DNA from: Candidatus Woesearchaeota archaeon
Lineage (GTDB): Archaea; Nanobdellota; Nanobdellia; SCGC-AAA011-G17; PNOQ01
Direction: 5' to 3'
NCBI GenBank assembly: GCA_964587005.1
Contig: CAZPJW010000003.1
Location: forward strand, 6,392 to 70,391
Length of the DNA stretch: 64,000 nt
Shown here: positions 2,190-63,427 of the stretch, piece after piece
Layout: the number at the start of each line of letters is the position of its first letter
Position numbering within the stretch: the stretch's first letter is position 1
Notes under the pieces: generated by a model
Database searches by the model: none
What the model saw: only the letters and a program-made list of their open reading frames with translations
What the model was told of the DNA's origin: nothing
Translations under genes and position numbers: made by a program

Positions 2190-5037
<2,848 letters not shown>

Positions 5038-5038
5038 A

Positions 5039-5578: not shown

Positions 5579-5582
5579 ACAA

Positions 5583-9114: not shown

Positions 9115-9387
9115 TCAATTATTAAGAGACCTATACCACTCAGAGAATTCTTTTCTTTTCTTTTGGGAGAGCATTGTTGAAATTGGTTTGTATGAGAAGA
9201 CTATCCCAACCGCCCCGAAAAAAATAGTTATTGCTGCGGGCAAGTAGCCTATTTCTTGTTGTTCTGTTGGGTTTTTTATTTTTGGAGCAGAAAGTAATGT
9301 ATTCTCTAATTTATTAGCTTCTGTAAATCTGGGCGAACTAAGTGTTAAAGTTGAAATTAGAAGAGTGTTGTATAGTTTATTTTTCAC
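9115..9387 (-). CDS. Hypothetical small membrane/secreted protein
   Basis: N-terminal hydrophobic segment and a central TM helix ([14 protein letters not shown]); no recognisable domain. Confidence 0.3.
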
Positions 9388-10616
9388 ATTAACTCACCGT
9401 AACCAATTAATCTCCAACGTGCACCAAGCATTCTTGCGATTGTTATTCTTTCGTTTTTGAATGCGCAAACTGGTTTTTTTAGTTTGAGTTTTATAGAATC
9501 TTTTTTTAGTTCTGTTACTGTTCCTACTGTTGCCGTTGAATTTACATTAAGCATTAAGATTTCGTTCATTTTTATTGGTTCAACTACTAATTCATCTTTT
9601 GAACCTACAACTCTTTCTAGTAATGTTTGTTTTAAATTAAGTTCTTCTAAAGTTTCTGGCATTTTTCCGTGTAAACCAGCTACATTTCCAACTAATGAAT
9701 CTGATTTTACTAATGTTGGGTCTAGTTTTGTTTGGATTCCTGCAGAACCTCCAGGAGTTATTTCTGAAACTTCTTGGTTTCCGGTAATTAGAGATTCAAT
9801 TTGAGTTTGTATTGGTTCCCAGATTATTTTATTTTGTTTTTCTGTTTTTATTCCAGGTTTTATTTCAATTAAATCTCCTTTTTTTAATATTCCCGTTTTC
9901 ATTGCTCCACCTAAAACTCCACCCTTTAGACCTTTTATTACGGTTCCAGGTTTGTTGATGTCAAATGATCTTGCTACTAAGAATAAAGGATCTTTTTTTT
10001 GGTCTCTTTCTGGAGTCGGGAATGTTTCTTGTATTGTTTTGATTAGGACGTCAATGTTTATTTTGTGTTGAGCAGAAATAGGTATTATTGGCGAATCTTC
10101 ATAATTTGTTCCTTTTAGAAATTCTTTAATTTGTTTGTAGTTTTCTAAAATTTTTTCTTTATCTACTAAATCTATTTTATTTTGTATAATTATTACATTT
10201 TTTACTTCAGCTATTTCTAATGCCATTAAGTGTTCTTTTGTTTGTGGTTGAGGGCATTCTTCTGTTGCCGAAACCATTAATAATGCTGCATCCATGATTG
10301 CTGCTCCAGAAAGCATTGTTGCCATTAGTGTTTCGTGGCCAGGAGCATCTATGAATGAGACTTTTCTTAGTGGGATAAATTTTGGTTTTTTTTCTACTGT
10401 ATAACATTCTGGATCTTTTTTATCTGGATCTTTATAGAATGTAGTGTCTGCGTATCCTAATTTTATTGTGATTCCTCTTTTTAATTCTTCAGAATGAACG
10501 TCTGTCCATTTTCCGGACAAAGCTTGTGTTAAGGTGGTTTTTCCGTGGTCAACATGTCCAACTAATCCTATACTAATTTCTGGTTGTAATTCTTTGGTTT
10601 CATTTTTCTTAGGCAT
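9384..10616 (-). CDS. eif2g: Translation initiation factor 2 subunit gamma (aIF2γ)
   Basis: G-domain [21 protein letters not shown]; the zinc-knuckle region and domains II/III typical of aIF2γ. Confidence 0.9.
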
Positions 10617-10660
10617 AAGAATTTGATTTTTGTGATGGTTTATAAATATATTGGTAAGAA

Positions 10661-11173
10661 TTAAGGTAGTGACTTTTTTACAAGTTTTTTTAAATAGGCA
10701 TCTTTATATTTTCTATATCTTTTGCCGTCTCCCCCCGCATATTTGACTGCATTTTTTTTTATTAAGGAATACTTTTTTGCTTCATCCTTATGTTGATTTA
10801 GATAGTCTCTAACCGCAATCATTTCTTCCCATTTTTTACTGTTATAGTAAGTAAGCTGTATATGTACCCGTCTTTCTTTTTTATTATATTTTATAATTTT
10901 TTGAAGAAATTTTCTTTCTTCATCTCCAGTATATGGTTTGTAAACATATCTGTTATTCTGTAATTTTTTTATCGCTTTTTCTACTTCTGTTTTTGGAACA
11001 GAAATTGTTATATCAATTATTCCTTTCCCGCCGAGATTTTTTACTGCGGAGCTACCAATGTGTTCTATTTTTGATTTTGGAAGTATTTTTGATAATCTCC
11101 TCTTTTCTTTTTTGAATAATTCTTGGTATTTTTTTGAGTATCTTAAATAGATGTATTTCTCTTTTTCTACCAT
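10661..11173 (-). CDS. GrpB-family protein (nucleotidyltransferase fold, UPF0157)
   Basis: [20 protein letters not shown] motif characteristic of GrpB/DUF98-type proteins. Confidence 0.6.
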
Positions 11174-11244
11174 ATTTTCAAATTAGAATTCTTTATTTAT
11201 AACTATTTGTAATTTTTAATTAGGGGCAAGAATCACTTCTTCTT

Positions 11245-11700
11245 TTACTTTGGTTCCTCTTTAGGAGCTTCTTTTACTTCTTCAGTAGGTTTTTCTTCTG
11301 ATTTTGTTTCTTCTGCTGGAGCTTCGGGTTCTTTTTCTAAGCCTAAAACTTTTGGAAGAGTATCTTTACCGTATTTTTCAACCTTTAAATTTATTTGAGA
11401 AATTGATTCATCAATAGTATTTCCATGCATTGTTTTTCTTTGTTGCATTCCTTTGACTTTGTTTTTTACTCCAATGCCAGAAACGACTAAGGGTCTTTTT
11501 CTTCCAATTCCAGGAATATCGGATCTCATTGGAAAACCTTGTTTATCAGATCCTCCTGTTATTGTGAATTCATAACCTTTGAAACCAAATTCGTCACCAG
11601 AGATTTTTTCTCCGATTTTTTTATTTAAGAATATATCTGATTCTACTTCTTTCTTATATGATTTTTTTGCTTTTACATCGTTTATTGTTAGTTTGAACAT
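11245..11700 (-). CDS. rps6e: 30S ribosomal protein S6e with an EPK-rich C-terminal tail
   Basis: ITGGSDKQGFPMR and GMQQRKTMHGNTI conserved S6e motifs; the C-terminal EKEPEAPAEETKSEEKPTEEVKEAPKEEPK tail is low complexity. Confidence 0.8.
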   Translation of the reverse strand: MFKLTINDVKAKKSYKKEVESDIFLNKKIGEKISGDEFGFKGYEFTITGGSDKQGFPMRSDIPGIGRKRPLVVSGIGVKNKVKGMQQRKTMHGNTIDESISQINLKVEKYGKDTLPKVLGLEKEPEAPAEETKSEEKPTEEVKEAPKEEPK

Positions 11701-11703
11701 TTT

Positions 11704-13443
11704 TTACATACCCCACGTTGGATTTTCATTTCTTTTGATTTCGGCGATTTCTTTTAACAATTGGGTCTCTGATTCATTTAAATACTTTTTCATTAGTTTT
11801 TTAAGCTTTTTGAAGTCTCCTTGTGGAATATCTGAGTATAAAATATCATTTTCCTTGATTTGTCTGCCACAAGTTATGTTTGGTAAGGAAATAGCGACTT
11901 CTTTGCCTTGTTTTGCTTCTTGCACAGTTTCTTTATTGTCTTGTATTTCTTTTAGCTCGGTTAGTTTTTTTCCTTTTGATGTCATTAAAGGAGTTCCAGC
12001 TCTTGCTGTTCCTATTAATATATCTACTCCAACTACAGCAGGATTTAACTGTCTAAAAACACATCCGGGCATAATTTTTAGTTTGAAAGGTTTTACTAGG
12101 TCTTGAAATTCTTTTTCTTCTAATGATTTTGATGTTGTGTCTAAGTGTTTTGTAACATCATCGATTATTTTATAGATTATGTTGTTTGTAATTATTTTTA
12201 CTTCTTTAGATTCTTCTAAAACTTTTATGTTGAAACCAACTACTGTTTTGTTTAGTGGGTCTTCGTTTGAAGAAGCTTCTGCAATGTCGTTTTTTGTTAT
12301 ATTTCCGATTGCTGCCTTTTTTATTTTTATGTTTTTATCTTTTAATAATGAGATTAATGCTTCTAAAGAACCAAGAGTGTCTGCTTTTGCTATAATTCCT
12401 TCGTTGTCTGTGTCTATTGTGACTTCATCTATTTCTTGTTGAAGTTCTTTTATTATTTCTTTTTCATTTTCTTTATTTGAAACTCTTAATGGCATTCCGG
12501 GAATTGCTTCTTCTAAATTTGGTGAAGAAATTTTTATTCCTGCTGATGCATGTACTTCTTTTTTTTCTGTTAGTTTCGATTTTTCATATTTGAATAAACA
12601 TTTTACTTTTGTTTTTATTGGTTCATTTAAAGTTCCAATTACAATATTATCATTTTGTTTTATCTTTCCATCGTAAATTACTACATCTAGTGTTTTTCCA
12701 ATTCCTTTTTCTTCTGTTACTTCTAGTATTGTTCCTTTTGCAGGTTTTTCTAGATCTGTTTCTAAAGAAGATTCTAAGAATTTTTGAGCTAGCCCGGAAA
12801 TTACCATAAGCAATTCTGGTAAGCCATCTTTTGTTTTTGCAGAACAAGGGATTATTGCTACTTGTTTTGTGTAATCTTGTAATCTGTCAAATCTTTCTGA
12901 TTGTAGGCCGTGTTCGTGTAGAGTTTGAACTATTTTGTATAATTTTGTTTCGATATCAGTTGTTACATAATCTTGTTGATCTTTGATATTTTGCAAGATT
13001 GGTTTTTTTGGATCTGAAATAAATCCTCCAGATCTGTCTATTTTATTTGCTGCTACTACGAATGGAGTTTTTGAGTTTTTTAGAATTTCAATAGCTTCTA
13101 GTGTTTGAGGTTTTGCACCTTCGTTCATATCAATAACTAGGATTGCGATGTCTGCTATATTTCCTCCCCTTTTTCTTAGGGTTGTGAAAGCTTCGTGCCC
13201 AGGGGAGTCTATGAATAAAATTCCTGGAATTGTTAAGTTAATATTTTTTAATAAATCTCCACAGGTTTGTTTTATTTTATTTAGTTCTATTGAATGTGCT
13301 GTGATGTTTTGAGTTATTCCTCCGGCTTCTTTGTCTGCCACAGATGTCTCTCTAATTGAGTCTAGAATACTTGTTTTTCCGTGGTCTACGTGTGCTAATA
13401 ATACACATATTGGTTGTCTTAGCATTTTCTTAATATTAGGCAA
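11704..13443 (-). CDS. infB: Translation initiation factor IF-2 (aIF5B)
   Basis: AHVDHGKTSILD, DSPGHEAF, NKID G-motifs followed by β-barrel domains; 579 aa. Confidence 0.9.
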   Translation of the reverse strand: MPNIKKMLRQPICVLLAHVDHGKTSILDSIRETSVADKEAGGITQNITAHSIELNKIKQTCGDLLKNINLTIPGILFIDSPGHEAFTTLRKRGGNIADIAILVIDMNEGAKPQTLEAIEILKNSKTPFVVAANKIDRSGGFISDPKKPILQNIKDQQDYVTTDIETKLYKIVQTLHEHGLQSERFDRLQDYTKQVAIIPCSAKTKDGLPELLMVISGLAQKFLESSLETDLEKPAKGTILEVTEEKGIGKTLDVVIYDGKIKQNDNIVIGTLNEPIKTKVKCLFKYEKSKLTEKKEVHASAGIKISSPNLEEAIPGMPLRVSNKENEKEIIKELQQEIDEVTIDTDNEGIIAKADTLGSLEALISLLKDKNIKIKKAAIGNITKNDIAEASSNEDPLNKTVVGFNIKVLEESKEVKIITNNIIYKIIDDVTKHLDTTSKSLEEKEFQDLVKPFKLKIMPGCVFRQLNPAVVGVDILIGTARAGTPLMTSKGKKLTELKEIQDNKETVQEAKQGKEVAISLPNITCGRQIKENDILYSDIPQGDFKKLKKLMKKYLNESETQLLKEIAEIKRNENPTWGM

Positions 13444-36506: not shown

Positions 36507-38297
36507 TTACAACAATAATTCAATATCTTTTCCAATTATTTTTTTCAAATCTTCAAATAATTTAGTTGTTAAAGAAATAGATTGTGGAACTTCTACATCA
36601 ACTAATGTTTTGTCTAGTTCGTCCCGATTTGAATCTTTTAAGTCCACTAATTTTCCTTTAACTATATCTGCTTTTTGGATTTTGTCTTTTTGTTTTAAAT
36701 CTTTAATTATGAAAATTTGGTCTTTTAGTATTAAAATCTCTCCTATTTTTCCAGCGTGTTTAAATTTAATCTTGGCTCGTTCAATACCAAAGAATTTTTT
36801 CCTTTGAACATGTTCTGTTACTGCTCTTATGAATGTTCTGACTTCTCTCTTTACTTTATCTGATTCTGCTTTTATTAATTTTTTAGATTTGAAATCAGCG
36901 TATGCCTTATTGAAATATTTTAGACTATCTGATAAAGATTCTGGTAAGTTTTCTTTTTCTATGAATTTTTTGAATCCTAAATCTAGTTTTTTGAAGGGTA
37001 TTCCTTCCTCTGTTAATATTTTTTCAAGAGTATTATTTAGAGCACTATACATTTCTGTGAATGTTTCTTTTTCTGTTTTTTTCTCAATTTGTTTGAATAG
37101 TTTTTTTATTCTTGCTAAGTATGCTTCGGAATCTAATAATAATTGATCAATTTCTGCCCCCTTAATCTCTTTTACTTTTCCGTGTTCTATATTTTTGAAG
37201 AAAACTCTAATTTTTTCTAGAGTGTCAACATATTTTTGTTCTAGAATTTTTTCTTTCTTAACAAAGATTTCTTCTAATAGTTTAACGGTTTCTTTTGGTG
37301 TTGGTGGAGAAATTCCATAAAGCATTAATGCTGCTTGTGAGGGATTTAATATTCCGTAGTATAAATCTTCTCCGGCAATCATTAGTAATTTCTTTTTTGC
37401 TCTGTCTAGTAATTTTTCTCCCATATCCATTTGCATGTCTATTGCTTCCGGGGAAGGCCTGATTCTTCCCATATTTAATAATAATCTCCAGGGCGTGAAA
37501 ACTCCCCTATCATAAATTGGTACTCCGTCTCTTAGTAATGTGAATATAACCGGGTGTGCATCTTTTACAGATTCCCAGAAATCAGTTAAAATATATATTT
37601 GAACGTGGAAGTCTTTTTTTACACCAGTTATTGCGGATGCTTCAAAGCCTTGACTTATAATTAATGATCTTAATTTGTCTCTTAGTTCGGTACGTGTCAT
37701 TCTTCGGACATCGGTATCGTCTATTACAACATAAACATCGATATCATTTGATTTTTCTCCTCTAAATAATGAACCTGCTGCCACGTAGCTAACAATATAT
37801 TTTTCGAATTTTTGTAAGACCATGTTTTTATGGACTTCGGAGATTTTTAAGGCACCTAAAAAGTCCATTGGATCATAAAGAATTGCAGACATTGCCGTCA
37901 TTTGTAGAACTTCGTATTTTGAATCGAATAAGGATTCTTTTATTTCTGAGACAGTATAAACTTCTGGGTATATATCATCTGATTGTGCAACTTTATCTAA
38001 TTCTGAAAATACTTTATCTCTTAATTTGAAATCCGGTTGTAATTTTGATTTTGAATCATCAACTACTACAAGTACTTGAGTTTCTCTTTTGTTTTGTTTT
38101 GGTGGTTGGTTTGGTGCATTTGGTTCTGCTTTTTGTGGCGGAAGTAATGCAACCCCTAGAATTTGTTTTTTATGAGTTTTTAGAATTTTATCTTTGAATT
38201 TCTCTGCTTTTGCCTTAATTTTTTCTATTTTCGCCTTTATTTTCTCTTGTTCTTCCGGCGTAGGCAATTTTGGTGGTAAATATGGAGATTGATTCAT
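36507..38297 (-). CDS. Nucleotidyltransferase-domain protein (Pol β-type NTase plus helical domain) with long charged extensions; paralog of 26499–27407
   Basis: AAGSLFRGEKSNDIDVYVVIDDT NTase signature; the GRIRPSPEAI...SQAALMLYGISPPTPKE block aligns with the 302-aa paralog; Lys/Glu-rich N- and C-terminal extensions. Confidence 0.5.
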   Translation of the reverse strand: MNQSPYLPPKLPTPEEQEKIKAKIEKIKAKAEKFKDKILKTHKKQILGVALLPPQKAEPNAPNQPPKQNKRETQVLVVVDDSKSKLQPDFKLRDKVFSELDKVAQSDDIYPEVYTVSEIKESLFDSKYEVLQMTAMSAILYDPMDFLGALKISEVHKNMVLQKFEKYIVSYVAAGSLFRGEKSNDIDVYVVIDDTDVRRMTRTELRDKLRSLIISQGFEASAITGVKKDFHVQIYILTDFWESVKDAHPVIFTLLRDGVPIYDRGVFTPWRLLLNMGRIRPSPEAIDMQMDMGEKLLDRAKKKLLMIAGEDLYYGILNPSQAALMLYGISPPTPKETVKLLEEIFVKKEKILEQKYVDTLEKIRVFFKNIEHGKVKEIKGAEIDQLLLDSEAYLARIKKLFKQIEKKTEKETFTEMYSALNNTLEKILTEEGIPFKKLDLGFKKFIEKENLPESLSDSLKYFNKAYADFKSKKLIKAESDKVKREVRTFIRAVTEHVQRKKFFGIERAKIKFKHAGKIGEILILKDQIFIIKDLKQKDKIQKADIVKGKLVDLKDSNRDELDKTLVDVEVPQSISLTTKLFEDLKKIIGKDIELLL

Positions 38298-42014: not shown

Positions 42015-42587
42015 TTATGAAACTACCCTATTTCTGCCCCTTTCTTTAGCTTTATAGAGTTTTTCATCTGCAGATTTGTATAATTTTTCTATATCTGGTT
42101 TTTCTTTTGGTTTAAAATTTGATAATCCTATACTTATTGTAATTTTTTCTTTATTTTTGTAGAACTTTTGTATTGATTTTCTTAGTCTTTCTGCTACTTT
42201 TTTTGAATTTTTTTTATTTGTGTTTGGAAGTATTACTGCGATTTCTTCTCCACCATATCTTCCAATACTTTTTCCAGGGATATCGGTATCTCTGATTTGG
42301 GTTTTTAGTAGTTTTGAGATTTGTTTTAGGACTTCGTCTCCTTTATCATGCCCGTATGTGTCGTTTATTTTTTTGAAATGGTCTATGTCTATGAAAAGTA
42401 AAGATGCTTCTTGCTTTAGTTTGTAGGATCTATTTAGAACTTTTTTGAAGATTTCATCGAATGTTTCTCTTCTTAGTAAATTTGTTAGTTTGTCATACTT
42501 TGCTTTCTTTTTCCATATGATTAATTGTTGTTTTAGCTTTTTGTTTTCTACTTTTAGCTCTTCATTTCGTTTTTCTAATTTTTTCAT
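42015..42587 (-). CDS. GGDEF-domain protein (putative diguanylate cyclase) with an N-terminal coiled coil
   Basis: GGDEF-domain blocks RRETFDE, LLFIDIDHFKKINDTYGHDKGDEVL and RYGGEEIAVIL (GGEEI variant of GG[DE]EF); N-terminal leucine-zipper-like helix. Confidence 0.7.
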   Translation of the reverse strand: MKKLEKRNEELKVENKKLKQQLIIWKKKAKYDKLTNLLRRETFDEIFKKVLNRSYKLKQEASLLFIDIDHFKKINDTYGHDKGDEVLKQISKLLKTQIRDTDIPGKSIGRYGGEEIAVILPNTNKKNSKKVAERLRKSIQKFYKNKEKITISIGLSNFKPKEKPDIEKLYKSADEKLYKAKERGRNRVVS

Positions 42588-42640: not shown

Positions 42641-43291
42641 TTAAGAATTTAGTTCTTGTTCTATTAGTTGTTCAAAAGCACCAAATGGTTGTGCACCCGA
42701 TAAAGGAATTCCGTTTATGAAAAATGCTGGTGTTCCTCTTACTCCTGCTGCTGAACCATCTCGTAGGTCTTTTTGTACTTCGTCGTAGTTTTTTCCAGAG
42801 TCAAGACAATCATTAAATTCAGTTGTGTCTAATCCTATTTGAGAGGCGTATTGTTTAAAGGACTCAACACCCTGAGATACTCCTGACTCGAAAAGTTTGT
42901 CGTGCATTTCATAGTATTTCCCTTGGTCTCCTGCGCACTCTGCTGCTTCTGCTGCTTTTTGTGCGTTTCGATGACTACTTAATGGGAAATCTCTATAAGC
43001 GAATTTGACCTTTCCTGTGTCAATATATTTTTCTTCTATTAATTTTAGTGTTTGTGAATAGAATCTTGCACAGTAAGGACATTCGTAATCAGAAAATTCT
43101 ACGATTGTTACTGGAGCATTTGAATCTCCTTTTATAGTATCATCATCTAAAGATACTTGTACTCTTTGTACTACTTGTTCTTCTTGTATTGTATTTCCAG
43201 TTTGACTTGTTTCATTTGAATTTATAAAAAAGGTTGCTACTAACAATATTGCTAAAACTCCTACAGTTATCTTTAATCCTTTGTTTTTCAT
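42641..43291 (-). CDS. DsbA-like thiol:disulfide oxidoreductase (secreted/anchored)
   Basis: N-terminal TM/signal, then a thioredoxin fold with the CPYC active site (FSDYECPYCARF). Confidence 0.7.
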   Translation of the reverse strand: MKNKGLKITVGVLAILLVATFFINSNETSQTGNTIQEEQVVQRVQVSLDDDTIKGDSNAPVTIVEFSDYECPYCARFYSQTLKLIEEKYIDTGKVKFAYRDFPLSSHRNAQKAAEAAECAGDQGKYYEMHDKLFESGVSQGVESFKQYASQIGLDTTEFNDCLDSGKNYDEVQKDLRDGSAAGVRGTPAFFINGIPLSGAQPFGAFEQLIEQELNS

Positions 43292-47835: not shown

Positions 47836-48567
47836 TTAAATCTTTCGTATATTTTTCAAAACTATTATTGAGATTATAAATAACGGAATTGAAATCCATT
47901 GTCCATAAGTTAGTCCTGAAAAAATTACTTGGTCTTTGAAAAATTCTATTATAAATCTAAATAGAGAATAGAGTGCTATGAACATCCAGAAGATAACTCC
48001 GCGCTTTATATTTTTAACTTTGTAGAAGTTTAAGAGAATTATGAAAATGAAAAAATTCTTTATTGATTCGTATATTTGTGAAGGATGTCTTAGTCCTTCT
48101 AGATTATCATAATATATCCCCCAGGGAACGTTTGTTATTCTTCCAGGAAATTCTTGGTTAAGGAAGTTTCCTATTCTTCCTAGACTTAATCCTAATGCTA
48201 AAGGAATAACGATTATGTCTGCTATGTCGTAGAAATGTATTTTATATTTTTTACAGAAGAAATATGTTCCTATTATTGCTCCGAGTAAACCCCCATGAAA
48301 AGCCATTCCTCCTTGCCAGATGTAAAATACCCTTAGTAGATTATCTTGGTATAAATGGAAGTTGAGTATTACTGCTAAAAGTCTTGCTCCAATTATGCTG
48401 CTTGGAATTAAATAAACAAAATAATCATAGATTTGTTGTTTTGTTATATTTCTCTTTTTTGCAAGTTTTATTGAGATTGGGATTGCTATTAAGAAACCTA
48501 GGGCGAATATTATCCCATACCAATGTATCTGTAATGTTCCTATTGTGAATGCTATTGGATCAATCAT
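47836..48567 (-). CDS. lgt: Prolipoprotein diacylglyceryl transferase (Lgt-like)
   Basis: Lgt signature blocks: IHWYGIIFALGF, IGARL, WQGGMAFHGGLLGAI, GRIGNFLNQE, VPWG; multi-TM. Confidence 0.8.
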   Translation of the reverse strand: MIDPIAFTIGTLQIHWYGIIFALGFLIAIPISIKLAKKRNITKQQIYDYFVYLIPSSIIGARLLAVILNFHLYQDNLLRVFYIWQGGMAFHGGLLGAIIGTYFFCKKYKIHFYDIADIIVIPLALGLSLGRIGNFLNQEFPGRITNVPWGIYYDNLEGLRHPSQIYESIKNFFIFIILLNFYKVKNIKRGVIFWMFIALYSLFRFIIEFFKDQVIFSGLTYGQWISIPLFIISIIVLKNIRKI

Positions 48568-48637: not shown

Positions 48638-49084
48638 TTGATGATATGTGTAATTGCAATGGTTGTTTTTGGAGTAATGGCAATATTTTCTGCGAGTCAT
48701 AGGCCGTTAGCGAAAGAAGCATTTGATTGTGTTTTTAGAAGAATTACTTTGAGGAGTTGTCAATCTGGTTTGGATGTTAAATTGAAAGCTAAATTGGTTG
48801 GTAGTTTAATGAGGAAGAATTCTAAGTTTGCCAGGCCCGTGTATAAACATTTTGAAATGGTTTCTTGGATATTTGTCATTATTTTCTTTGTAAGTTTAGT
48901 TTATTCGGGAGTATCTGTTTATAATTTAGCTGTGCATGATAATTGTGCTGGCCCAGATGCAGATCCAGAAGAATGTATTTTTGTTCCTAATAATGAAGCA
49001 GTAAGTTGTGGCGATCCTTTATGTGAATCTGGAGAATGTGAAGTTTGTGGAGAAGTATGTGGTTGTCATGAGTGTGAAGGTTAA
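48638..49084 (+). CDS. Membrane protein with a Cys-rich C-terminal domain
   Basis: Two TM helices, then CAGPDADPEECIF...SCGDPLCESGECEVCGEVCGCHECEG. Confidence 0.3.
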   Translation: MMICVIAMVVFGVMAIFSASHRPLAKEAFDCVFRRITLRSCQSGLDVKLKAKLVGSLMRKNSKFARPVYKHFEMVSWIFVIIFFVSLVYSGVSVYNLAVHDNCAGPDADPEECIFVPNNEAVSCGDPLCESGECEVCGEVCGCHECEG

Positions 49085-50760
49085 TCTCTTAAATTTACTC
49101 TGATTTGGTCTGCTCTTTCTTTCATTAATTCTTTGTGCTTTTTTTTATCATAGGTCGGGTCAAATGGAATAATTTTTGAACAATGGGTTTTGTCTGGACA
49201 GAACCCAATATAACCACATTTTGGAACCACTAATCCGGCCATATGATCTGGGAAGTCAGGTGAACCAGTAATTAATTTCATTTCTCTTTCTGTTAAATCT
49301 TGCATTTCGGGTTCTGCATGATTACATAGTCTTAAAGATGCGTATCCAGATGTTAGGTTATATAGGTCCCATTTTTTTGTAACTCCAACTTTCATTCCTC
49401 TTGGAACCACCGCTATTGCATCACTTTTTGGAATTCCCATCTCAATTAAAGCGTTATATGTTCTTACAGACTCATAAATTCTATCTCTCCAAAGTTTGAA
49501 GTTATCTTCATCAGATTCTACTGAAGCTGGAACGGAGGAAATTGACTTGAGCATGCCGAAATCCAGTAAGCCGGAAGACAACATTTTGTTTGCTCTTTCT
49601 AAAGCATCGTAAATGGACTCTACTGTTTGTGGCATTGTCCTATGTCTTTTTACTTCTCCCCAAACTCTCCAAGGAGTATTTGTAGCAGTTACTGCATCAA
49701 ATTCTGTATTGTGGTCATGGATAATATTGTCTAATTCTTTTAGTATGTTTCTCCACCCCCTTCTTATGTCCCCAGGCTCTCTAAATAATTCTTCTCTTCT
49801 TTCTAGATATGCTTTTACTCTTCTTTCTAGATCTTTTGTTGGAGTACTTGTTAGGGATAATAAAGCAGGTTCGTAAAGTGCATTTTTTTCGTTTTCTTCC
49901 ATAATTTCGTGAGCGTGATTCGTTCTTGAATGGAATAATTCTGGATTTGGACATCCAGTTCTTGCTGCTGCTTTTCTTGCTTCGTAAGTTATGCCCATTC
50001 CCCTTCCGTGAATGATTTTTTCTAATTCCGATAGAATTTCTAGCCCTTCCTTTGGGATTGATTCTTTATCCGCATCTGCACGAATTTTTAAGTTAATTAT
50101 TGTTTCTAGTGGGAAGAAAGCTTCTCCTCCTCCTCTTAAACCATATTGAACTATTTTGCTTGCTACTTGTTTTGGAACGCCATTGGCTTTTAGAGTTTCA
50201 TGTGCTTGAATATTTGATCGAGACGTGTTTAAGTATAAATCTAAGGCTTCTCCCCCCATATCTGCTATTGACTCAGGAACTAGTATTTGTTCTTTTTCAA
50301 TTGGAATTCTTCTTCCAGAAGGCATTAGTGCGCTCATGAATCTTGCACCGGTGAACAGGGAGTCAACAAATTTTGAAGTGTTTCCTTCAAGATAAACCCA
50401 TAATCCCGGGTTTGTTGCAATTGAAGCATGCCCTGCCCCAGCGGAAGCTATTAGGCCAGCGGTAACTTTCTCTGTGAAATCTTGTTCCATCATTTGTTCC
50501 ATTAATTCACCCATTACTCCGGTGTCTTTGTAAGTGATTAGAGAAGCTAGTTGGCCAATTTCATCTGGATTAATAGAATTGTGAATGCTTAATTCTGATT
50601 CAGGGATTAGTATTTTTCCATCTTGAATAAACTCTTTTGGTAGAATTACATTTCCTGCTTTTGTTCTCTTTACTTCTGCTGTTAATTCTCTTTTTAGAAC
50701 TTTTTCAGGACCATATCCCAGCAAGGTAACTTTTGGATCGATAACTTTTATTTCTGACAT
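49081..50760 (-). CDS. Large hypothetical protein (559 aa); weak ThyX-like N-terminus and an RHR motif, family unresolved
   Basis: N-terminus IKVIDPKVTLLGYGPEK resembles ThyX openings and there is an RHRTMPQTVES segment, but the ThyX SxNExSxRY continuation is missing and the protein is about twice ThyX length. Confidence 0.3.
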   Translation of the reverse strand: MSEIKVIDPKVTLLGYGPEKVLKRELTAEVKRTKAGNVILPKEFIQDGKILIPESELSIHNSINPDEIGQLASLITYKDTGVMGELMEQMMEQDFTEKVTAGLIASAGAGHASIATNPGLWVYLEGNTSKFVDSLFTGARFMSALMPSGRRIPIEKEQILVPESIADMGGEALDLYLNTSRSNIQAHETLKANGVPKQVASKIVQYGLRGGGEAFFPLETIINLKIRADADKESIPKEGLEILSELEKIIHGRGMGITYEARKAAARTGCPNPELFHSRTNHAHEIMEENEKNALYEPALLSLTSTPTKDLERRVKAYLERREELFREPGDIRRGWRNILKELDNIIHDHNTEFDAVTATNTPWRVWGEVKRHRTMPQTVESIYDALERANKMLSSGLLDFGMLKSISSVPASVESDEDNFKLWRDRIYESVRTYNALIEMGIPKSDAIAVVPRGMKVGVTKKWDLYNLTSGYASLRLCNHAEPEMQDLTEREMKLITGSPDFPDHMAGLVVPKCGYIGFCPDKTHCSKIIPFDPTYDKKKHKELMKERADQIRVNLRD

Positions 50761-50851: not shown

Positions 50852-51994
50852 ATGAATGTTGAGAAAATAAGAGGGGATTTTTCTGTTTTGAAAAAAGACA
50901 TTATTTACTTTGATAGTGCTTGTATGTCTTTGAAACCTAAATCGGTAGTTAATAAGATTCTTGAATACTATAAAGATTATCCCTCTTGTGCTGGGAGAAG
51001 CGTTCATAAATTTGGGATTAAGTTAGATGAAGAGATTAATTCTTCTAGAAAATCTATTCAAAAATTTATTGGAGCTAAAAAGTCTAATGAAGTGATATTT
51101 TCTAAGAATACTACCGAAAGTATTAATTTGATTGCTAATTCGTTTAAATTTGATAAAGTTTTAGTTAGTGATAGGGAACATAATTCTAATTTATTACCTT
51201 GGCAAAAATTTAAGTATGGTGTTTTGAAGAGTAAAAATGATTTTATGTTTGATTTGGAAAAATTTTCCGAAGCCGTAAAAAATTATGATTTCGTCTCATT
51301 TGTTCATACTTCAAATTTTGATGGGTATACTTTGCCCATTAAGGAAATTATTAAAATTGCTCATGATAATAAAACTAAAGTTCATTTGGATGCTGCTCAA
51401 GCTGTGCCGCATAAGGAAGTTAATGTTAAGAAGTTGGGAGTTGATTTTTTGACTTTTTCTGGACATAAAATGCTTGGGCCTACTGGTACTGGTGTTTTGT
51501 ATGCTAATGAAAATATTTTGGAAGATATGAAACCGTTTTTAGTTGGTGGAGAAACTGTTATTGATTCTAGTTATGATGGCCACGTTTTAGAAGAATTGCC
51601 AAATCGATTTGAAGCAGGTTTGCAAAATTATGCTGGGATTTTAGGTTTGGGTGAAGCTGCTAAATATTTGAAAAAAATTGGAATGTCTGATATTGAAGAT
51701 CATGAGAAAAAATTAGTTAAAGAAATAAGTTTAGCTGGTGTTGAGCAAGTTGGTTTTAAGGGCGAAAGAGGAATTTTTAATTTTAATATTCCAAAAATTG
51801 ATCACCATGAAGTTGCTGGAATTTTGAGTTCAAGCAAAAATATTATGTTGAGAAGTGGTATGCATTGCGCGCATTCTTGGTATAATGCTCATAATTTGAA
51901 AGGAAGTGTTCGTGCTAGTTTTTATTTATATAATAATTTAGATGAAGTTAAAATTTTTAATGAAGAATTAGAGAAATTAATGAAGTTGAGTTAG
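50852..51994 (+). CDS. Cysteine desulfurase (class V aminotransferase, SufS/CsdA-like)
   Basis: PLP-lysine motif FLTFSGHKMLGPTGTG and active-site Cys region RSGMHCAHSW. Confidence 0.85.
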   Translation: MNVEKIRGDFSVLKKDIIYFDSACMSLKPKSVVNKILEYYKDYPSCAGRSVHKFGIKLDEEINSSRKSIQKFIGAKKSNEVIFSKNTTESINLIANSFKFDKVLVSDREHNSNLLPWQKFKYGVLKSKNDFMFDLEKFSEAVKNYDFVSFVHTSNFDGYTLPIKEIIKIAHDNKTKVHLDAAQAVPHKEVNVKKLGVDFLTFSGHKMLGPTGTGVLYANENILEDMKPFLVGGETVIDSSYDGHVLEELPNRFEAGLQNYAGILGLGEAAKYLKKIGMSDIEDHEKKLVKEISLAGVEQVGFKGERGIFNFNIPKIDHHEVAGILSSSKNIMLRSGMHCAHSWYNAHNLKGSVRASFYLYNNLDEVKIFNEELEKLMKLS

Positions 51995-53034
51995 GGGACT
52001 AGCAAAGCTTCTAAATTGTTTACTAGGTTACTTCCTTCTTTTAAGATTATAAATTCGCACCCCAAATGTTCTGTTATTTCTTTTTGTCTTTGTTCGTCTT
52101 TTTCTTTTCTTTTATTATGTGCTTTTTCATAGAATTCTATAACTATGTTTTTTTCTGGGTCATAGCCATCTACCCAGTACCCTAGTTCTGGGATGTGACA
52201 TTCTCCATTCTCTCCCCTGATTATTAATTCGGTTTTGACTTCTTTTTTACTAGGTGTTTCGGCGTGAATGAAATTATAGCCATTTAATATTCCATATAGT
52301 TCAATAATTTCACAAGCATTCTGGTTATAATTTGGGCTTGCTTTTCCATTTTTTCTTTTTATGTCTTCGATTCTGTTTAACCTGCCTAATCTTGACATCA
52401 TTTTTTTGAATTTTGGATCTTCCCATCTTTTCAATAAACTTTCTTTCATTAATTTTCTATGTTTAGGATCTTCCCATAGATTTTTAGATTGCTGCGATAC
52501 TTTTTCTCTGTTTTCTGGGGTTTGTGCTCTTTCCCTGCTTTTTTCTTCCATCATTTTTCTATAATTCGGATCTTCCCATAGTTCTCTGGCTACTTGTACC
52601 ATCATCCCTTTATACAGGGGGTTTTCCCATCTTTCCCTCATTCTATCTTTAGCTCTTTCTCTATGTTCTGGATTTTCCCACCGGCTAGTTAGTTGTTCTA
52701 ATCTTTCTGACCTATACTCTGGGTCTTCCCATCTTTCCCTCATTCTATCTTTAGCTCTTTCTCTGTGTTCTGGATTTTCCCAAGTTCTCTTTGATACTTG
52801 AGACATTATTTTATCTCCCCTGTATATCCTATCTTCTTTTTCTAATAACCCCAATGCTTTCATGACTTGAGATTTACTGATATTATATTTTTCTATTAAT
52901 TCGGGGGTTGTGGTAAATCGACTTATTTTGCTTAGCCGGTGTAAATCAATTTCCTCACTTACTCTTGTTAGAATTTCTTCTCTTATTTTTGCATACTCTG
53001 CATTTGATAATTTTCTTTGAGTCATTTCCCCCAA
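51991..53034 (-). CDS. Putative site-specific/homing-type endonuclease: HTH plus NUMOD3-like repeats plus a C-terminal PD-(D/E)xK (DUF559/Vsr-like) domain
   Basis: Six or seven tandem ~20-aa repeats W(E/D)(D/N)P(E/K)(H/Y)R...; the C-terminal GYWVDGYDPEKNIVIEFYEKAHN...LGCEFIILKE matches the DUF559/Vsr-like restriction-endonuclease fold pattern. Confidence 0.45.
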   Translation of the reverse strand: MGEMTQRKLSNAEYAKIREEILTRVSEEIDLHRLSKISRFTTTPELIEKYNISKSQVMKALGLLEKEDRIYRGDKIMSQVSKRTWENPEHRERAKDRMRERWEDPEYRSERLEQLTSRWENPEHRERAKDRMRERWENPLYKGMMVQVARELWEDPNYRKMMEEKSRERAQTPENREKVSQQSKNLWEDPKHRKLMKESLLKRWEDPKFKKMMSRLGRLNRIEDIKRKNGKASPNYNQNACEIIELYGILNGYNFIHAETPSKKEVKTELIIRGENGECHIPELGYWVDGYDPEKNIVIEFYEKAHNKRKEKDEQRQKEITEHLGCEFIILKEGSNLVNNLEALLVP

Positions 53035-53990
53035 TCATAATCCCTAACTTTTTCAGTTGCAAAGAAAGTGGCATCATGTCCTCTATTTTGAACTAGGCTC
53101 CAAAGTAAAATTTCTTTTTCTGCTTTTGTTAGTTTTCTGGGTTTGGTTTCGTCTTTACCTTGTATTAAACAATTTTCAGATAACTTTCTATAGAAGTCTA
53201 CTGTGTCTTGAGTGGGAATTGCGAACTGACTCATTTCTAATGGTCTAATATTTTTTTCTTTTAACCAATAATGATCAATTATAGCTAAATAGGCTGCTGC
53301 TTCATGAGCACAGAAATTAAAAACTCTTGAACTCTCTTTATCATCTTTGAATCTATATCTTATGTCAAATCTTTTTCTATCACAAGTATGATCTGTTGCA
53401 ACGTTATGTGCTATTCCCCACTTTTCTTTAGAATCAACTACGGGAACTGAAGAAAATTTGAATCTATGTCTAGGTTGTTTTTGTGTTCTTGATGGTACAC
53501 TTACAATAATTTCTGCCCCTTGTGTTTCTACAGCTGCTGAATCATCGTAGGGTTTTACTTCTATGCCCGTTGCAGGATTTTGGTGCGAATATGCAAATAT
53601 TTTTGCCCCTTCAAGTTCTTCTACCAATGAAAATCTTCTTTTTCTTTGGTCTTTACCTACGAAAGGCATTATTGAATATCCTGGATGAAATGGATTTCTT
53701 ACTCCGTCGAAAGCCATTTCTCTTAGTTGTACTGGAGTTTTTCTGTATCTAATTGCATCTTCTAAACTTTTTCTTCTTGGTAGCATTACTTCTGGACTGT
53801 GTTTTAGAAAATGTCTCCCATTTCTGAAAGATTTTGGTATTAGATTTGCGTGTAAAATTAAGGCTTCATCTTCACATAAATTTTCAATTTCACTTACAAA
53901 ATTTCTAGAAATATCTCTAATTCTATCATAATGTTTTATATCTGCTGCCGTTGGTTCCTGAAAATATGATTTTCTGATAGTTTTGGCCAT
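53022..53990 (-). CDS. Hypothetical protein, start/stop-coupled to the downstream NUMOD/nuclease gene
   Basis: 322 aa, no recognisable motif; 13-nt overlap with the next gene; GC-richer codons. Confidence 0.3.
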   Translation of the reverse strand: MAKTIRKSYFQEPTAADIKHYDRIRDISRNFVSEIENLCEDEALILHANLIPKSFRNGRHFLKHSPEVMLPRRKSLEDAIRYRKTPVQLREMAFDGVRNPFHPGYSIMPFVGKDQRKRRFSLVEELEGAKIFAYSHQNPATGIEVKPYDDSAAVETQGAEIIVSVPSRTQKQPRHRFKFSSVPVVDSKEKWGIAHNVATDHTCDRKRFDIRYRFKDDKESSRVFNFCAHEAAAYLAIIDHYWLKEKNIRPLEMSQFAIPTQDTVDFYRKLSENCLIQGKDETKPRKLTKAEKEILLWSLVQNRGHDATFFATEKVRDYDWGK

Positions 53991-60623: not shown

Positions 60624-61343
60624 ATGCAACAAGAATCTGTTCAACATCAAATGATGGGATATGACCGTGCGAGTACTATGTTTAGTCCCGACGGTAGGTT
60701 ATTACAAGTAGAATATGCAAAAAAAACTGTTAAGCAAGGAACTCCGGTGTTAGGAGTAGTTTGTAAAGATGGAGTTGTTTTAGTAGCCGATAAGAGGGTT
60801 ATTGATAAATTAATGGTTGTCGATAGCGTTGAAAAAGTTTTTCAAATAGATGAGCACATTGCTGCAGCTGCATCAGGAATTATGAGTGATGCAAGAATTT
60901 TAATTGAAAAAGCTCAAGTAATGGCACAACAACATAGAGTTACTTATGATGAGGCAATGGAACCTGCTTCTTTGGTAAAAGAAATTTCAAATTTAAAGCA
61001 AGCATACACACAATATGGTGGTGCTAGACCCTTTGGTGTTTCTTTATTGATTGCAGGATGTAATGATGAACCTAGATTGTTTTTAACCGATCCTACTGGA
61101 ATTCAATGGGAGTATAAAGCAACTGCTATTGGAGAATATGAAGATGAATTGAAAGCAATTTTAGCTAAAACATACAAAGAGAATATTAGTGTTGAAGAAG
61201 GTGTAAAACTAGGATTGAATGCTATAAAGTCTGTTTTGGGAAAAGATTTCAATTTGGATAGATTGGACGGTGCGTATATAAAAATGAGTGATAAGAAATT
61301 TAAGAGGTTAAATAAAGATCACTTGAAAAAAATAATAAAATGA
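60624..61343 (+). CDS. psmA: Proteasome subunit alpha
   Basis: GYDRASTMFSPDGRLLQVEYA α-subunit N-terminal signature; 239 aa. Confidence 0.9.
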   Translation: MQQESVQHQMMGYDRASTMFSPDGRLLQVEYAKKTVKQGTPVLGVVCKDGVVLVADKRVIDKLMVVDSVEKVFQIDEHIAAAASGIMSDARILIEKAQVMAQQHRVTYDEAMEPASLVKEISNLKQAYTQYGGARPFGVSLLIAGCNDEPRLFLTDPTGIQWEYKATAIGEYEDELKAILAKTYKENISVEEGVKLGLNAIKSVLGKDFNLDRLDGAYIKMSDKKFKRLNKDHLKKIIK

Positions 61344-62026
61344 ATGTTGAGAACTCGGTAATAGCAAGAATGAAGAAAGGAGACCAGAATTTTGAGATTT
61401 TGGTTGACTGCGAAAATGCGATGGCATTTAAGAGGGGCAAGAGCACATTAGATGAAACTTTAATTAGCGAGGATATTTTTAAAGATTCTAAGAAGGGAGA
61501 GCACGCTTCAGAAAATGACTTGAAAACTTTATTTGGCACAGAAAATAAGAGAGAAGTTGCTGAAAAAATTTTGAAGAATGGAGAAGTGCAGTTAACTGTA
61601 GAATATAAAAATAGATTAAGAGAGGAGAAAAAGAAAAAAATTGCCTTTTTGATCTCACAATATGCTGTTAATCCTCAAAATAATTTGCCCCACCCTTTGG
61701 AAAGAATAGAAAGTGCAATGGATGAAAAGAAGGTTAAGATTGAAGAATTTAAATCTGCTGAAGGGCAAGTTGAAAATGTTGTTGCTGAGTTAAGAGAAAT
61801 ATTGCCAATCTCTTATGAAACGAAAAGACTTAATTTAATAATTCCTGCCGAGGCTTCAGGAAGGAGTTTTGGAATTATAAAAAAATATGGCAAAATAATG
61901 AAAGAAAACTGGTTAAGTGACGGTAGCTTGTCAGTAGATATAGAAGTCCCTGCAGGTTTGCAGGCGGGCTTATTTGATGATTTAAACGATATAGCTCACG
62001 GAAGAGTTGAGTCGAAGGAGATTTAA
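61340..62026 (+). CDS. sdo1: SBDS-family ribosome maturation protein
   Basis: VIARMKKGDQNFEILVD...ISEDIFKDSKKGEHASENDLKTLFGTENKREVAEKILKNGEVQLT matches the SBDS N-domain. Confidence 0.8.
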   Translation: MNVENSVIARMKKGDQNFEILVDCENAMAFKRGKSTLDETLISEDIFKDSKKGEHASENDLKTLFGTENKREVAEKILKNGEVQLTVEYKNRLREEKKKKIAFLISQYAVNPQNNLPHPLERIESAMDEKKVKIEEFKSAEGQVENVVAELREILPISYETKRLNLIIPAEASGRSFGIIKKYGKIMKENWLSDGSLSVDIEVPAGLQAGLFDDLNDIAHGRVESKEI

Positions 62027-62031
62027 GAAAA

Positions 62032-62718
62032 ATGGGAAAAATATTAGTAAAAGAAAGACAGCTTGTCATTCCAGGAGAAGAGCTGGCAGAAGGAATAGAT
62101 TATTTACCTGGAGATGGAGCTTTTAGAGAAGATGATAAAATTTATTCTTTGAAAGTAGGATTAGCACATCTTGATAATAGATTAATGAAAGTTATTCCAT
62201 TAGGCGGAAAATATTTGCCTAAAGAAGGAGATGTTGTTATAGGAAAAGTAGTAGATATTACAATGCACGGATGGAGGATGGACTTTGGTTGGCCTTTCTT
62301 TGCAACAATTATGCTTAGAGAAGGTAGCAGAGAGTTTATTCCAAACGGAGCGGACTTAACCCAATATTATGATTTTGGAGATTATCTTGCTTTTAAAATA
62401 ATAAAAGTGAGTGGTTCTAAGATTTTGGATGGGAGTATGAAAGTTCCTGGTGCAAGAAAATTAACCAATGGAAGAATGATTGAAGTTCAACCAACGAGAG
62501 TTCCAAGAATTATTGGAAAACAAGGCAGTATGATATCTTTAATTAAAGATGCTACTGGATGTTTTATTGTTGTTGGACAAAATGGTTATGTGTGGGTCTC
62601 AGGAGGAGAACCTGAAAAACAACTTTTAGCAATTAGAGCTATTCAGCTTGTTGAGAAGGAAGCCCACGGAGAAGGATTGACTGACAAGATTAGTAAATTC
62701 TTAAAGGAGAATAGTTAA
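62032..62718 (+). CDS. rrp4: Exosome complex RNA-binding protein Rrp4 (S1 plus KH)
   Basis: LVIPGEELAEG...VVIGKVVDITMHGWRMD (S1), then a KH-like GKQGSMISLIKDATGC. Confidence 0.85.
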   Translation: MGKILVKERQLVIPGEELAEGIDYLPGDGAFREDDKIYSLKVGLAHLDNRLMKVIPLGGKYLPKEGDVVIGKVVDITMHGWRMDFGWPFFATIMLREGSREFIPNGADLTQYYDFGDYLAFKIIKVSGSKILDGSMKVPGARKLTNGRMIEVQPTRVPRIIGKQGSMISLIKDATGCFIVVGQNGYVWVSGGEPEKQLLAIRAIQLVEKEAHGEGLTDKISKFLKENS

Positions 62719-62719
62719 A

Positions 62720-63427
62720 ATGGCTTATACAAAACGATTTGACGGAAGAAAATTTGATGAAATAAGAGCGATGGATGCTAAAGTTGGTGTCATAGATCGA
62801 GCTATTGGCAGTGCCATGTTTAAAATGGGAAATACCATTGCTTATGCTGCGGTTTATGGGCCAAGAGATTTGTTTCCAAGTTTTTTACAAAATTCAAGTA
62901 GGGGAGTTTTAAGATGTTATTATGACATGTGGAGCTTCTCTGTTACAGATAGAAAGAGACCTGGTCCAACCAGAAGAAGTACAGAGATTTCAAAAGTTTC
63001 TGAAGCTGCTTTGTTTCCAGCATTAAAGTTGGGAGCATTCGCTAATACAACTTTTGATGTGTACATAAACATTACACAAGCTGATGCAGGTACAAGAACT
63101 GCAGGAATTAATGCTGCGGCTTTGGCTTTGGCTGATGCGGGTGTGCCAATGGAAGATTTGGTTTGTAGTGTTGCGGTTGGAAAGGTTGGAGATAAAATTT
63201 GCGTTGATTTGGACAAAGAGGAAGAGGATTTTGAAGAGGGAGCTACAGATTTACCTGTTGCTATCATGCCAAGATCTGGTAAAATAACTCTTTTACAAAT
63301 GGATGGAAATATGACCCCGAAAGAGATTAAGGAAGCTTTGACTATGGCTAAAAAAGCGATGGAAAAAGTAAAGAAAGTTCAAGTGAAAGCCTTAAGAGAT
63401 AAGTATAAGGGGGAGGACAAAAAATGA
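62720..63427 (+). CDS. rrp41: Exosome complex exonuclease Rrp41 (RNase PH-like)
   Basis: RFDGRKFDEIRAMDAKVGVIDRAIGSAMFKMGNTIAYAAVYGPRD; RNase PH fold. Confidence 0.85.
   Translation: MAYTKRFDGRKFDEIRAMDAKVGVIDRAIGSAMFKMGNTIAYAAVYGPRDLFPSFLQNSSRGVLRCYYDMWSFSVTDRKRPGPTRRSTEISKVSEAALFPALKLGAFANTTFDVYINITQADAGTRTAGINAAALALADAGVPMEDLVCSVAVGKVGDKICVDLDKEEEDFEEGATDLPVAIMPRSGKITLLQMDGNMTPKEIKEALTMAKKAMEKVKKVQVKALRDKYKGEDKK

Follow-up and report, generated by a model that had tools for sequence, protein, structure and literature searches.

Can an archaeon mature its lipoproteins by the bacterial route, in which prolipoprotein diacylglyceryl transferase (Lgt) lipidates the lipobox cysteine of a secreted protein and signal peptidase II (LspA) removes the signal peptide? 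The question is raised by a 64,000-bp stretch of DNA from a Candidatus Woesearchaeota archaeon (assembly GCA_964587005.1, contig CAZPJW010000003.1, positions 6,392 to 70,391), hereafter the window, in which an earlier interpretation made from the letters alone (the sequence-only reading) had noticed an lgt-like and an lspA-like gene. Its premise that archaea are considered to lack both enzymes matches the view stated in a 2018 review and in a 2025 Nature Communications paper, according to which homologs of Lgt and of signal peptidase II are missing from every archaeal genome (Hong et al. 2025, PMC12462473). The sequences and predicted structures of the two proteins indicate that this Woesearchaeota-type DPANN archaeon probably, with a probability of roughly 80%, has a working bacterial-type lipoprotein maturation pathway.

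The Lgt and LspA proteins

Both Lgt profiles named in the sequence-only reading are exceeded by the lgt open reading frame (ORF; Table 1): it scores 247 bits against Pfam LGT (PF01790; cut-off 24.9, E = 2.1e-73) over profile positions 1-238 of 240 and passes the NCBIfam equivalog TIGR00544 with 186.7 bits (cut-off 118.9). By sequence it also matches the crystallized Escherichia coli Lgt 5AZB (E = 2.1e-35). The four signature blocks previously recognized are present exactly as given, at residues 15-18 (HWYG), 84-93 (WQGGMAFHGG), 130-139 (GRIGNFLNQE), and 147-150 (VPWG) of the 243-residue product.

In E. coli Lgt, the signature motif is G142RLGNFINGELWG154, an HGGL motif lies around H103, and a buried network comprises Y26, R143, N146, N149, E151, E202, Y235, R239, E243, and R246, most of which are intolerant of mutation (Mao 2016, PMC4728403). 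These positions were traced in an alignment of the window protein, 116 further database homologs, 36 locus-translated homologs, and E. coli Lgt. Counts for the clade (n = 117) refer to full-length top database matches, which are archaeal wherever they are named or their contig was tested. The window motif reads G130-R-I-G-N-F-L-N-Q-E-F-P-G142, and its R, N, N, E, and G are the same in 117/117 clade members. E. coli Y26, H103, R143, N146, N149, and E151 align with Y17, H91, R131, N134, N137, and E139 of the window protein, and G154, H196, Y235, R239, and E243 with G142, H161, Y200, R204, and E208; E167 is also kept at a network position. Outside the motif, the window protein therefore retains Y17, H91 (in FHGGL), Y200, R204, and E208, and five of the six essential residues are in place, the sixth (R246) being K211. 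Across the clade, Y26, R143, N146, N149, E151, G154, H196, and R239 (E. coli numbering) are invariant in all 117 sequences.

An AlphaFold2 model of the protein, built from 54 sequences (predicted local distance difference test, pLDDT, 92.2; predicted template modeling score, pTM, 0.88), was compared with the PDB using Foldseek. It matched 5AZB (E = 1.4e-14, template modeling (TM) score 0.87 on the query), with no other match below E = 0.8, and model and match together support the predicted fold of seven transmembrane helices around a central cavity. The protein thus shares with E. coli Lgt its family, its fold, the G-R-x-G-N-F-x-N-x-E-x-x-G motif, the HGGL arm-2 motif, the Y26/R143/R239/E243 catalytic network, and the pairing with LspA. 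It is 48 residues shorter than the E. coli enzyme (5AZB/5AZC), with shorter termini and a shorter L6-7 loop, and the head insert between G154 and H196 counts 18 residues against 41 (23 fewer), which implies a smaller periplasmic head. Compared with bacterial Lgt, it is further set apart by being encoded in an archaeal genome, by the K in place of R246, and by membrane lipids that are possibly of the archaeal ether type. Judged by sequence and model, the ORF is a true, bona fide Lgt of compact form whose catalytic residues look intact.

The second enzyme, encoded 27 kb away on the same scaffold, is a minimal LspA with four predicted transmembrane helices. It reaches 100.1 bits against Pfam Peptidase_A8 (PF01252; cut-off 25) and matches the solved LspA 6RYO by sequence (E = 1.7e-15). 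Its catalytic aspartates D97 (in VRDF) and D111 (in FNIAD) align with those of the solved LspA structures. Among 37 archaeal LspA homologs, D15, K19, N35, G37, G81, N85, R89, V95, D97, F107, N108, A110, and D111 are invariant; we take the pair D97 and D111 to be the dyad of bacterial LspA, and the 13 positions presumably are essentially the strictly conserved residues of the family. The AlphaFold2 model (pLDDT 87.5) matched LspA chains only in Foldseek, with TM-scores of 0.87 and 0.85 to Staphylococcus aureus LspA (6RYP and 6RYO) and 0.78 to Pseudomonas aeruginosa LspA (5DIR). What is shared with these bacterial enzymes is the set of four transmembrane helices, the Asp dyad, the conserved D-K-N-G-G-N-R-V-D-F-N-A-D series, and the fold (TM-score 0.78-0.87); what differs is the length of 130 residues against about 155-170, the trimmed periplasmic beta-cradle loops, and the archaeal host. 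The LspA homolog suspected at this place is thereby borne out, and on sequence and model the ORF is a bona fide compact LspA that appears catalytically intact. A radical SAM/SPASM-domain protein (window positions 20816-21916, plus strand) is transcribed divergently from lspA and has no obvious link to the lipoprotein pathway.

Archaeal host, distribution, and age of acquisition

Archaeal informational genes flank lgt and lspA on both sides, as the sequence-only reading had stated, with aIF2-gamma and aIF5B to the left and proteasome alpha and the exosome to the right. The window also encodes ribosomal protein L10e, Rpb7/RpoE, an archaeal-size TyrRS, and GluRS. It is part of a 100,832-bp scaffold that carries Rpb6, S2, Spt4, S24e, S27e, NAC, and Sec61-beta beyond the window edges. 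An identical Lgt protein with the same neighbors occurs on at least 10 contigs, which come from different metagenomes of ENA and JGI, and the junctions of the lgt region recur in independent assemblies of at least six samples. No anomaly in guanine-cytosine (GC) content is seen around lgt.

Conservation of the locus extends to other species. The order 148-residue membrane protein-lgt-GILT-like-TtuA-ThiS is kept in three other Candidatus Woesearchaeota species with Lgt proteins 77-79% identical, in one of which proteasome alpha and SBDS lie a few kilobases from the conserved block. In a more distant lineage, whose Lgt is 64% identical, a 346-kb contig has lgt about 1.7 kb upstream of the genes for Rpb5, split Rpb2, and Rpb1, with one gene between; lspA is apparently on the same contig, next to TyrRS, L7Ae, and S28e. 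Four further, more distant Lgt-bearing contigs have archaeal markers, and distant Lgt contigs (41-52% identity) bear deoxyhypusine synthase, an archaeal ATP-dependent DNA ligase, or a ThrRS with the archaeal editing domain. The contig of a 48%-identical LspA homolog encodes L7Ae, S28e, and L24e.

A word-indexed protein search returned 4185 matches to Lgt (E ≤ 1e-10) and 893 to LspA (E ≤ 1e-8). Among the best 120 of each, every match with a named organism is archaeal; the names given are Woesearchaeota, Nanoarchaeota, Nanoarchaeia, "archaeon", and Nanoarchaeum sp., and the NCBI labels are prolipoprotein diacylglyceryl transferase and signal peptidase II. Within these same best 120, six pairs of Lgt and LspA matches agree in the length of their longest contig (262465, 172035, 80626, 346477, 178900, and 90457), which indicates that the two genes share contigs. 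The nearest bacterial Lgt proteins, from Patescibacteria, are 43-45% identical and lie on contigs with TsaD and UvrA, while those of other bacteria are 30-40% identical. Three metagenome-assembled genomes (MAGs; L004, L005, and L007) are labeled "uncultured Methanosarcinales archaeon". Their GC content is 28-30%, and one of them (L005) has a 42%-identical homolog of a 596-residue window protein (36507-38297) of no assigned function; the label is therefore questionable, and the three may belong to DPANN. On a distant Lgt-bearing archaeal contig (L062, positions 3759-5742 and neighbors), genes for the large and small subunits of a NiFe hydrogenase and for the maturation proteins HypA, HypC, and HycI are found a few kilobases from lgt.

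The ratio of nonsynonymous to synonymous substitution rates (dN/dS) of lgt is 0.04-0.09, compared with 0.08 for the adjacent housekeeping gene TtuA, with dS near saturation; by this measure, Lgt appears to be under purifying selection. In a neighbor-joining tree with 100 bootstraps, Bacillota and Chloroflexi were separated from a group of archaea, Patescibacteria, Proteobacteria, and Bacteroidota in 100/100 replicates, whereas monophyly of archaeal Lgt was recovered in 0/100, the Patescibacteria nesting among archaeal sequences. Because most matches lack a taxon label and the sampling favored query-like sequences, the tree fixes neither donor nor direction.

The sequence-only reading had suggested acquisition from a bacterial host or neighbor. 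A bacterial origin still seems likely, but the recent event that this implied does not: a recent transfer of lgt from a host is rejected by the deep archaeal radiation, the host-like GC content, and a dN/dS below 0.1, which speaks for purifying selection. Because Lgt identities within the radiation range from 41 to 79%, composition is host-like, and dN/dS is low, the evidence points to an old acquisition of lgt and lspA from bacteria, early in the radiation of Woesearchaeota and Nanoarchaeota. Inheritance since then would have been largely vertical, with exchange with Patescibacteria (bacteria of the candidate phyla radiation, CPR) being possible.

Substrates, pathway, and gene neighborhood

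All ORFs of the window were scanned with a PROSITE-like lipoprotein rule, and three credible candidates were found. Two of them carry the ASTGC and LISSC strings previously spotted, both of which are present. The 111-residue candidate keeps L-[AV]-S-T-G-C in 3/3 database homologs (100, 86, and 75% identity), and the 64-residue candidate is also called as a gene in the independent assemblies L057 and L059; profile searches gave no family match for either.

The third candidate is the GILT/DsbA-like oxidoreductase directly downstream of lgt (Pfam GILT 35.6 bits, with weak matches to Thioredoxin_4 and DSBA). The TSGC string attributed to it is there, but as a lipobox it is not conserved: three orthologs (L001-L003) read ATSG-S, ATSG-F, and VFSG-F at the Cys position, it is absent too from the orthologs in the more distant L065 and L062, and a lipobox-like Cys occurs in only 2/53 single-domain representatives of the GILT-like family. 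The family is as a rule held by an uncleaved signal anchor, and the Cys of the window protein is at best a recent switch. The sequence-only reading had also described a cluster of lipobox-bearing redox proteins, several of them within 5 kb of lgt. This cluster was rejected, as the GILT-like protein, with its unconserved Cys, is the only lipobox-like one at that distance, and the DsbA-like protein counted with it has no lipobox; its CPYC is the thioredoxin active site, and its 60 N-terminal residues, which contain a hydrophobic anchor, hold zero Cys.

Substrates were also assessed statistically, through the residue that follows a signal-peptide-like N terminus ending in A, G, or S, among 314 genes from archaeal loci. 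Cys stood at +1 in 7/105 cases (6.7%; binomial P = 1.6e-4 against a background Cys frequency of 1.1%), compared with 1/69 in reversed sequences. In bacterial control loci the value was 4.6% (reversed 1.8%). Lipobox-type N termini thus show the same degree of enrichment in the archaeal loci as in the bacterial ones, which agrees with the reported prevalence of SignalP-predicted lipoproteins in DPANN (Hong et al. 2025, PMC12462473).

The pathway that we propose is modeled on the established bacterial one; what the locus contributes is two conserved and intact enzymes encoded by an archaeon, with plausible substrates at hand. Secreted proteins with a signal peptide ending in a lipobox Cys, of which the window holds at least three candidates, would be exported. 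On the outer face of the membrane, Lgt would transfer the glyceryl-lipid moiety of a phosphatidylglycerol-type lipid to the Cys thiol. LspA, as an aspartyl protease acting through D97 and D111, would then cut the signal peptide just before the lipidated Cys, leaving the protein anchored at the cell surface. The "complete bacterial-style route" of the sequence-only reading can be upheld in that both core genes are present and look intact; it is complete at the level of genes, and its function is predicted from sequence.

Several findings weigh against a working pathway. K211 is the sole departure of the window Lgt from the essential residues, and in E. coli an R246K mutant fails to complement (Mao 2016, PMC4728403). 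The LspA score against the NCBIfam equivalog TIGR00077 is 70.5 bits, 3.5 bits under the cut-off of 73.95. As the gene adjoining lgt encodes an unconserved lipobox, enzyme and substrate are not linked at the operon level, and the substrate statistic comprises seven proteins and a crude regular expression. The substituted arginine, the short LspA just under its cut-off, and the unkept lipobox would also fit the idea that Lgt and LspA have been recruited elsewhere, for a non-lipobox acceptor or for membrane-lipid remodeling, or that they are decaying, so that no bacterial-type lipoproteins are made. K211, however, is likely a tolerated natural variant, since K occupies this position in 64/117 clade members and in 9/29 bacterial homologs, and the LspA score fits the shortened periplasmic loops visible as alignment gaps. 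Recruitment or decay is also at odds with catalytic and substrate-binding residues that are conserved across the radiation down to 41% identity (apart from the K in the window Lgt), with the dN/dS of Lgt below 0.1, with the presence of both enzymes on the same contigs in several lineages, as a two-step pathway predicts, and with lipobox N termini enriched as in bacteria; we regard it as very improbable. Still less probable, to the point of being negligible, is a misjoin of bacterial (e.g., Patescibacteria) DNA to an archaeal contig or bin. Such an origin would suit the otherwise bacterial nature of Lgt and LspA, whose nearest bacterial homologs are from Patescibacteria, which share habitats and a low GC content with DPANN. 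Yet archaeal markers stand on both sides of one scaffold, the junctions recur in at least six independent assemblies, synteny holds in other species, lgt lies about 1.7 kb from Rpb5/Rpb2/Rpb1 in another lineage, and GC shows no anomaly. For these reasons a chimera or misbinning of the lgt region, a concern raised in the sequence-only reading, is excluded for practical purposes, and a working pathway in an archaeal cell remains the preferred reading.

Table 1. Features bearing on the lipoprotein pathway (window positions, unless a locus is named)
Feature	Position	Strand	Length	Evidence or context
Left archaeal markers: aIF2-gamma, GrpB, S6e, aIF5B	9384..13443	-		Pfam eIF2_C, Ribosomal_S6e, GTP_EFTU_D4 with IF-2
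Candidate lipoprotein, N terminus MRKTLLTLLVPLVLASTG-C19	14970..15305	-	111 aa	Lipobox scan
lspA, lipoprotein signal peptidase II homolog, minimal, four predicted transmembrane helices	20370..20762	-	130 aa	Pfam PF01252, PDB matches, model
Candidate lipoprotein, canonical lipobox MKTAIVALVLATILISS-C18	38417..38611	-	64 aa	Lipobox scan
DsbA-like thioredoxin (CPYC), N-terminal membrane anchor	42641..43291	-		Pfam Thioredoxin_4 132 bits, DSBA 72 bits
GILT/DsbA-like extracytoplasmic thiol oxidoreductase, …FVFVTATSG-C29	46875..47789	-	304 aa	Directly downstream of lgt
lgt, prolipoprotein diacylglyceryl transferase homolog	47836..48567	-	243 aa, ATG start	Pfam/NCBIfam profiles, 5AZB match, AlphaFold2 model
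Protein with two predicted transmembrane segments, Cys-rich C-terminal tail (…CGDPLCESGECEVCGEVCGCHECEG)	48638..49084	+	148 aa	Divergent neighbor of lgt
Right archaeal markers: proteasome alpha, SBDS, exosome Rrp4, Rrp41	60624..63427	+		Pfam Proteasome_A_N, SBDS_N, RRP4 domains, RNase_PH
Lit-like membrane protein	L065:1231-1770 (also L064:818-1357; L002:7141-7602; L003:7090-7545)		179 aa	Between thyX and Aminotran_5 gene

The divergent neighbor of lgt, a 148-residue protein, had no match in Pfam or NCBIfam. It is kept adjoining lgt in L001-L003 and near lgt in L065, with a dN/dS of 0.08-0.23, and given the DsbA- and GILT-like neighbors it could be a membrane redox partner. The pairing of lgt with a secreted thioredoxin-fold neighbor, on either side, is conserved down to 52% Lgt identity.

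Other genes of the window are of interest in their own right. Next to the 148-residue protein, a ThyX-like protein of 559 residues (49081-50760, minus strand) has its Thy1 domain only at residues ~350-496, and its N-terminal part of ~340 residues is without a family match; the L065 ortholog is a normal ThyX of 315 residues. A stand-alone GGDEF diguanylate cyclase (42015-42587, minus strand, 154.8 bits) represents bacterial-type cyclic di-GMP signaling in a DPANN archaeon and is kept in related Woesearchaeota loci, being near lspA in the 346-kb contig. At the left end of the window, a free-standing LAGLIDADG_2 homing-endonuclease ORF (2190-3158, plus strand, 137.8 bits) overlaps the start of a bacterial-type gyrB, and two HAD-hydrolase genes lie between gyrB and gyrA (3139-8554, plus strand).

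The lipid donor and the lipid divide

Bacterial Lgt recognizes lipids of the sn-1,2 ester type, but the canonical lipids of archaea are sn-2,3 ethers. Phospholipid-synthesis genes, of bacterial or archaeal type, were not seen in the ~100 kb of scaffold examined. Contacts to the lipid in E. coli Lgt are made by Y26 and R143, through hydrogen bonds to the ester oxygens of the sn-2 and sn-1 chains, and by Y235 and R239, which keep the glycerol backbone in place (Mao 2016, PMC4728403). None of these four lipid-contact residues has an archaea-specific substitution in the Lgt alignment.

A Lit-like gene is located a few genes from lgt in one lineage, and two close relatives of the window organism have homologs at the syntenic position. 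The protein of L065 scores 58.7 bits against Pfam PF07314 (cut-off 24) and weakly matches Bacillus cereus Lit 7B0O (E = 9.5e-4). It falls below the cut-offs of TIGR01906 (59.8 vs 74.8 bits) and of the Lit equivalog NF051877 (26.8 vs 400), and in the window itself no Lit homolog was found by tblastn. Compared with the Lit of Firmicutes (PF07314; B. cereus 7B0O), there is thus a Pfam-level family member near lgt in relatives and none in the window. The known reaction of Lit requires an ester-linked acyl chain, and a Lit-like gene would be the third gene of the bacterial lipoprotein pathway in these archaea. A Lit gene in the syntenic slot of the window was considered and rejected, as two unrelated ORFs occupy the slot. 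These ORFs, of 347 and 322 residues (51991-53990, minus strand), are without a family match and stand where L002 and L003 have the Lit-like gene; in the 347-residue ORF, some eight "WE[DN]PE[HY]R…" repeats stand in tandem and the C terminus is endonuclease-like, and the pair may be a mobile insertion.

Other genes also bear on the nature of the lipid. A patatin-like phospholipase (L068:12868-13812, 123.9 bits) is encoded on the same scaffold as lgt, about 1.6 kb past window position 64000, where it adjoins enolase and Rpb6. The patatin family hydrolyzes ester-linked acyl lipids, which would be unexpected in a cell with ether lipids only. In two other archaeal lineages, genes for murein-type lytic transglycosylases (SLT, one with LysM) are found near lgt (on the NcO5H_M3 contig and at L067:13848-14768 and 16331-end). 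Such genes have reportedly been noticed in Woesearchaeota before, and their position near lgt is consistent with interaction with bacterial cell walls. MAGs of Woesearchaeota from oxygen-deficient zones contain FabG, FabI, and FabZ as well as "cyclopropane fatty acid phospholipid synthesis" genes, in a 2024 mBio study that mentions neither lipoproteins nor Lgt (PMC10936187).

On the circumstantial evidence of the Lit-like gene, the patatin phospholipase, the transglycosylases, and the Fab genes, and with the lipid-contact residues unchanged, an ester-type donor is favored: we infer that ester-linked diacyl phosphatidylglycerol, made or scavenged, is somewhat more likely to be the lipid donor of Lgt than archaetidylglycerol. 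The fuller proposal, that Woesearchaeota make bacterial-style lipoproteins with ester-linked fatty-acyl glyceryl groups, in some lineages as a lyso-form by way of the Lit-like enzyme, is a tentative one that may well turn out otherwise. If true, the membrane would contain bacterial-type phosphatidylglycerol, scavenged from bacterial hosts or made with acquired Fab genes, and these archaea would in practice live on the bacterial side of the "lipid divide".

The alternative is an Lgt adapted to archaeal membranes, which would move archaeol from archaetidylglycerol to the lipobox Cys and so replace AliA in those DPANN that lack it. The organism is archaeal by all its informational genes, and the phosphoglycerol head group used by Lgt is also carried by archaeal lipids. 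AliA and AliB (arCOG02177 and arCOG02178) are lipoprotein lipidation components of Haloferax volcanii whose similarity to Lgt is only marginal; archaeol is the presumed modification of the lipobox Cys in archaeal lipoproteins, as reported for those of haloarchaea, AliA is distributed in DPANN "with some gaps", and some archaea with many predicted lipoproteins have neither AliA nor AliB (Hong et al. 2025, PMC12462473). The presumed role of the window protein, lipidating the lipobox Cys of secreted archaeal proteins, is the one it would share with AliA/AliB; it differs in being a canonical Lgt, which AliA is not. Against an adapted enzyme, Y26, R143, Y235, and R239 are free of archaea-specific change, so that nothing suggests an adjustment to ether lipids with the opposite chirality, and the Lit-like gene in relatives and the patatin-type acyl-ester lipase on the scaffold also argue the other way, although none of these is decisive. 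We consider the adaptation to archaeol rather unlikely. The maturation pathway itself, with Lgt and LspA acting on lipobox proteins, is proposed with either lipid.

Proteins of this kind have been deposited under their proper names, since these MAG proteins already bear the label Lgt or signal peptidase II from the pipelines of NCBI and JGI. A literature search on Lgt, LspA, and lipoproteins in Woesearchaeota, Nanoarchaeota, and DPANN, with most subscription journals outside its reach, found no paper linking them. Archaeal Lgt and LspA thus appear to be unrecognized rather than undiscovered. DPANN are known to hold many bacterial genes, which tempers the finding. Even so, a large DPANN lineage with canonical, conserved Lgt and LspA contradicts the generalization stated for archaea.

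For archaea that have lipoproteins but neither AliA nor AliB, "additional lipidation pathways yet to be discovered" have been postulated (Hong et al. 2025, PMC12462473), and Lgt/LspA is a concrete candidate for this missing route. As two small, expressible genes, lgt and lspA make it testable whether an Lgt-type enzyme acts on archaeal ether lipids or whether symbiotic archaea hold bacterial ester lipids. Either answer would inform our view of DPANN membranes, of their hosts, and of the permeability of the lipid divide.

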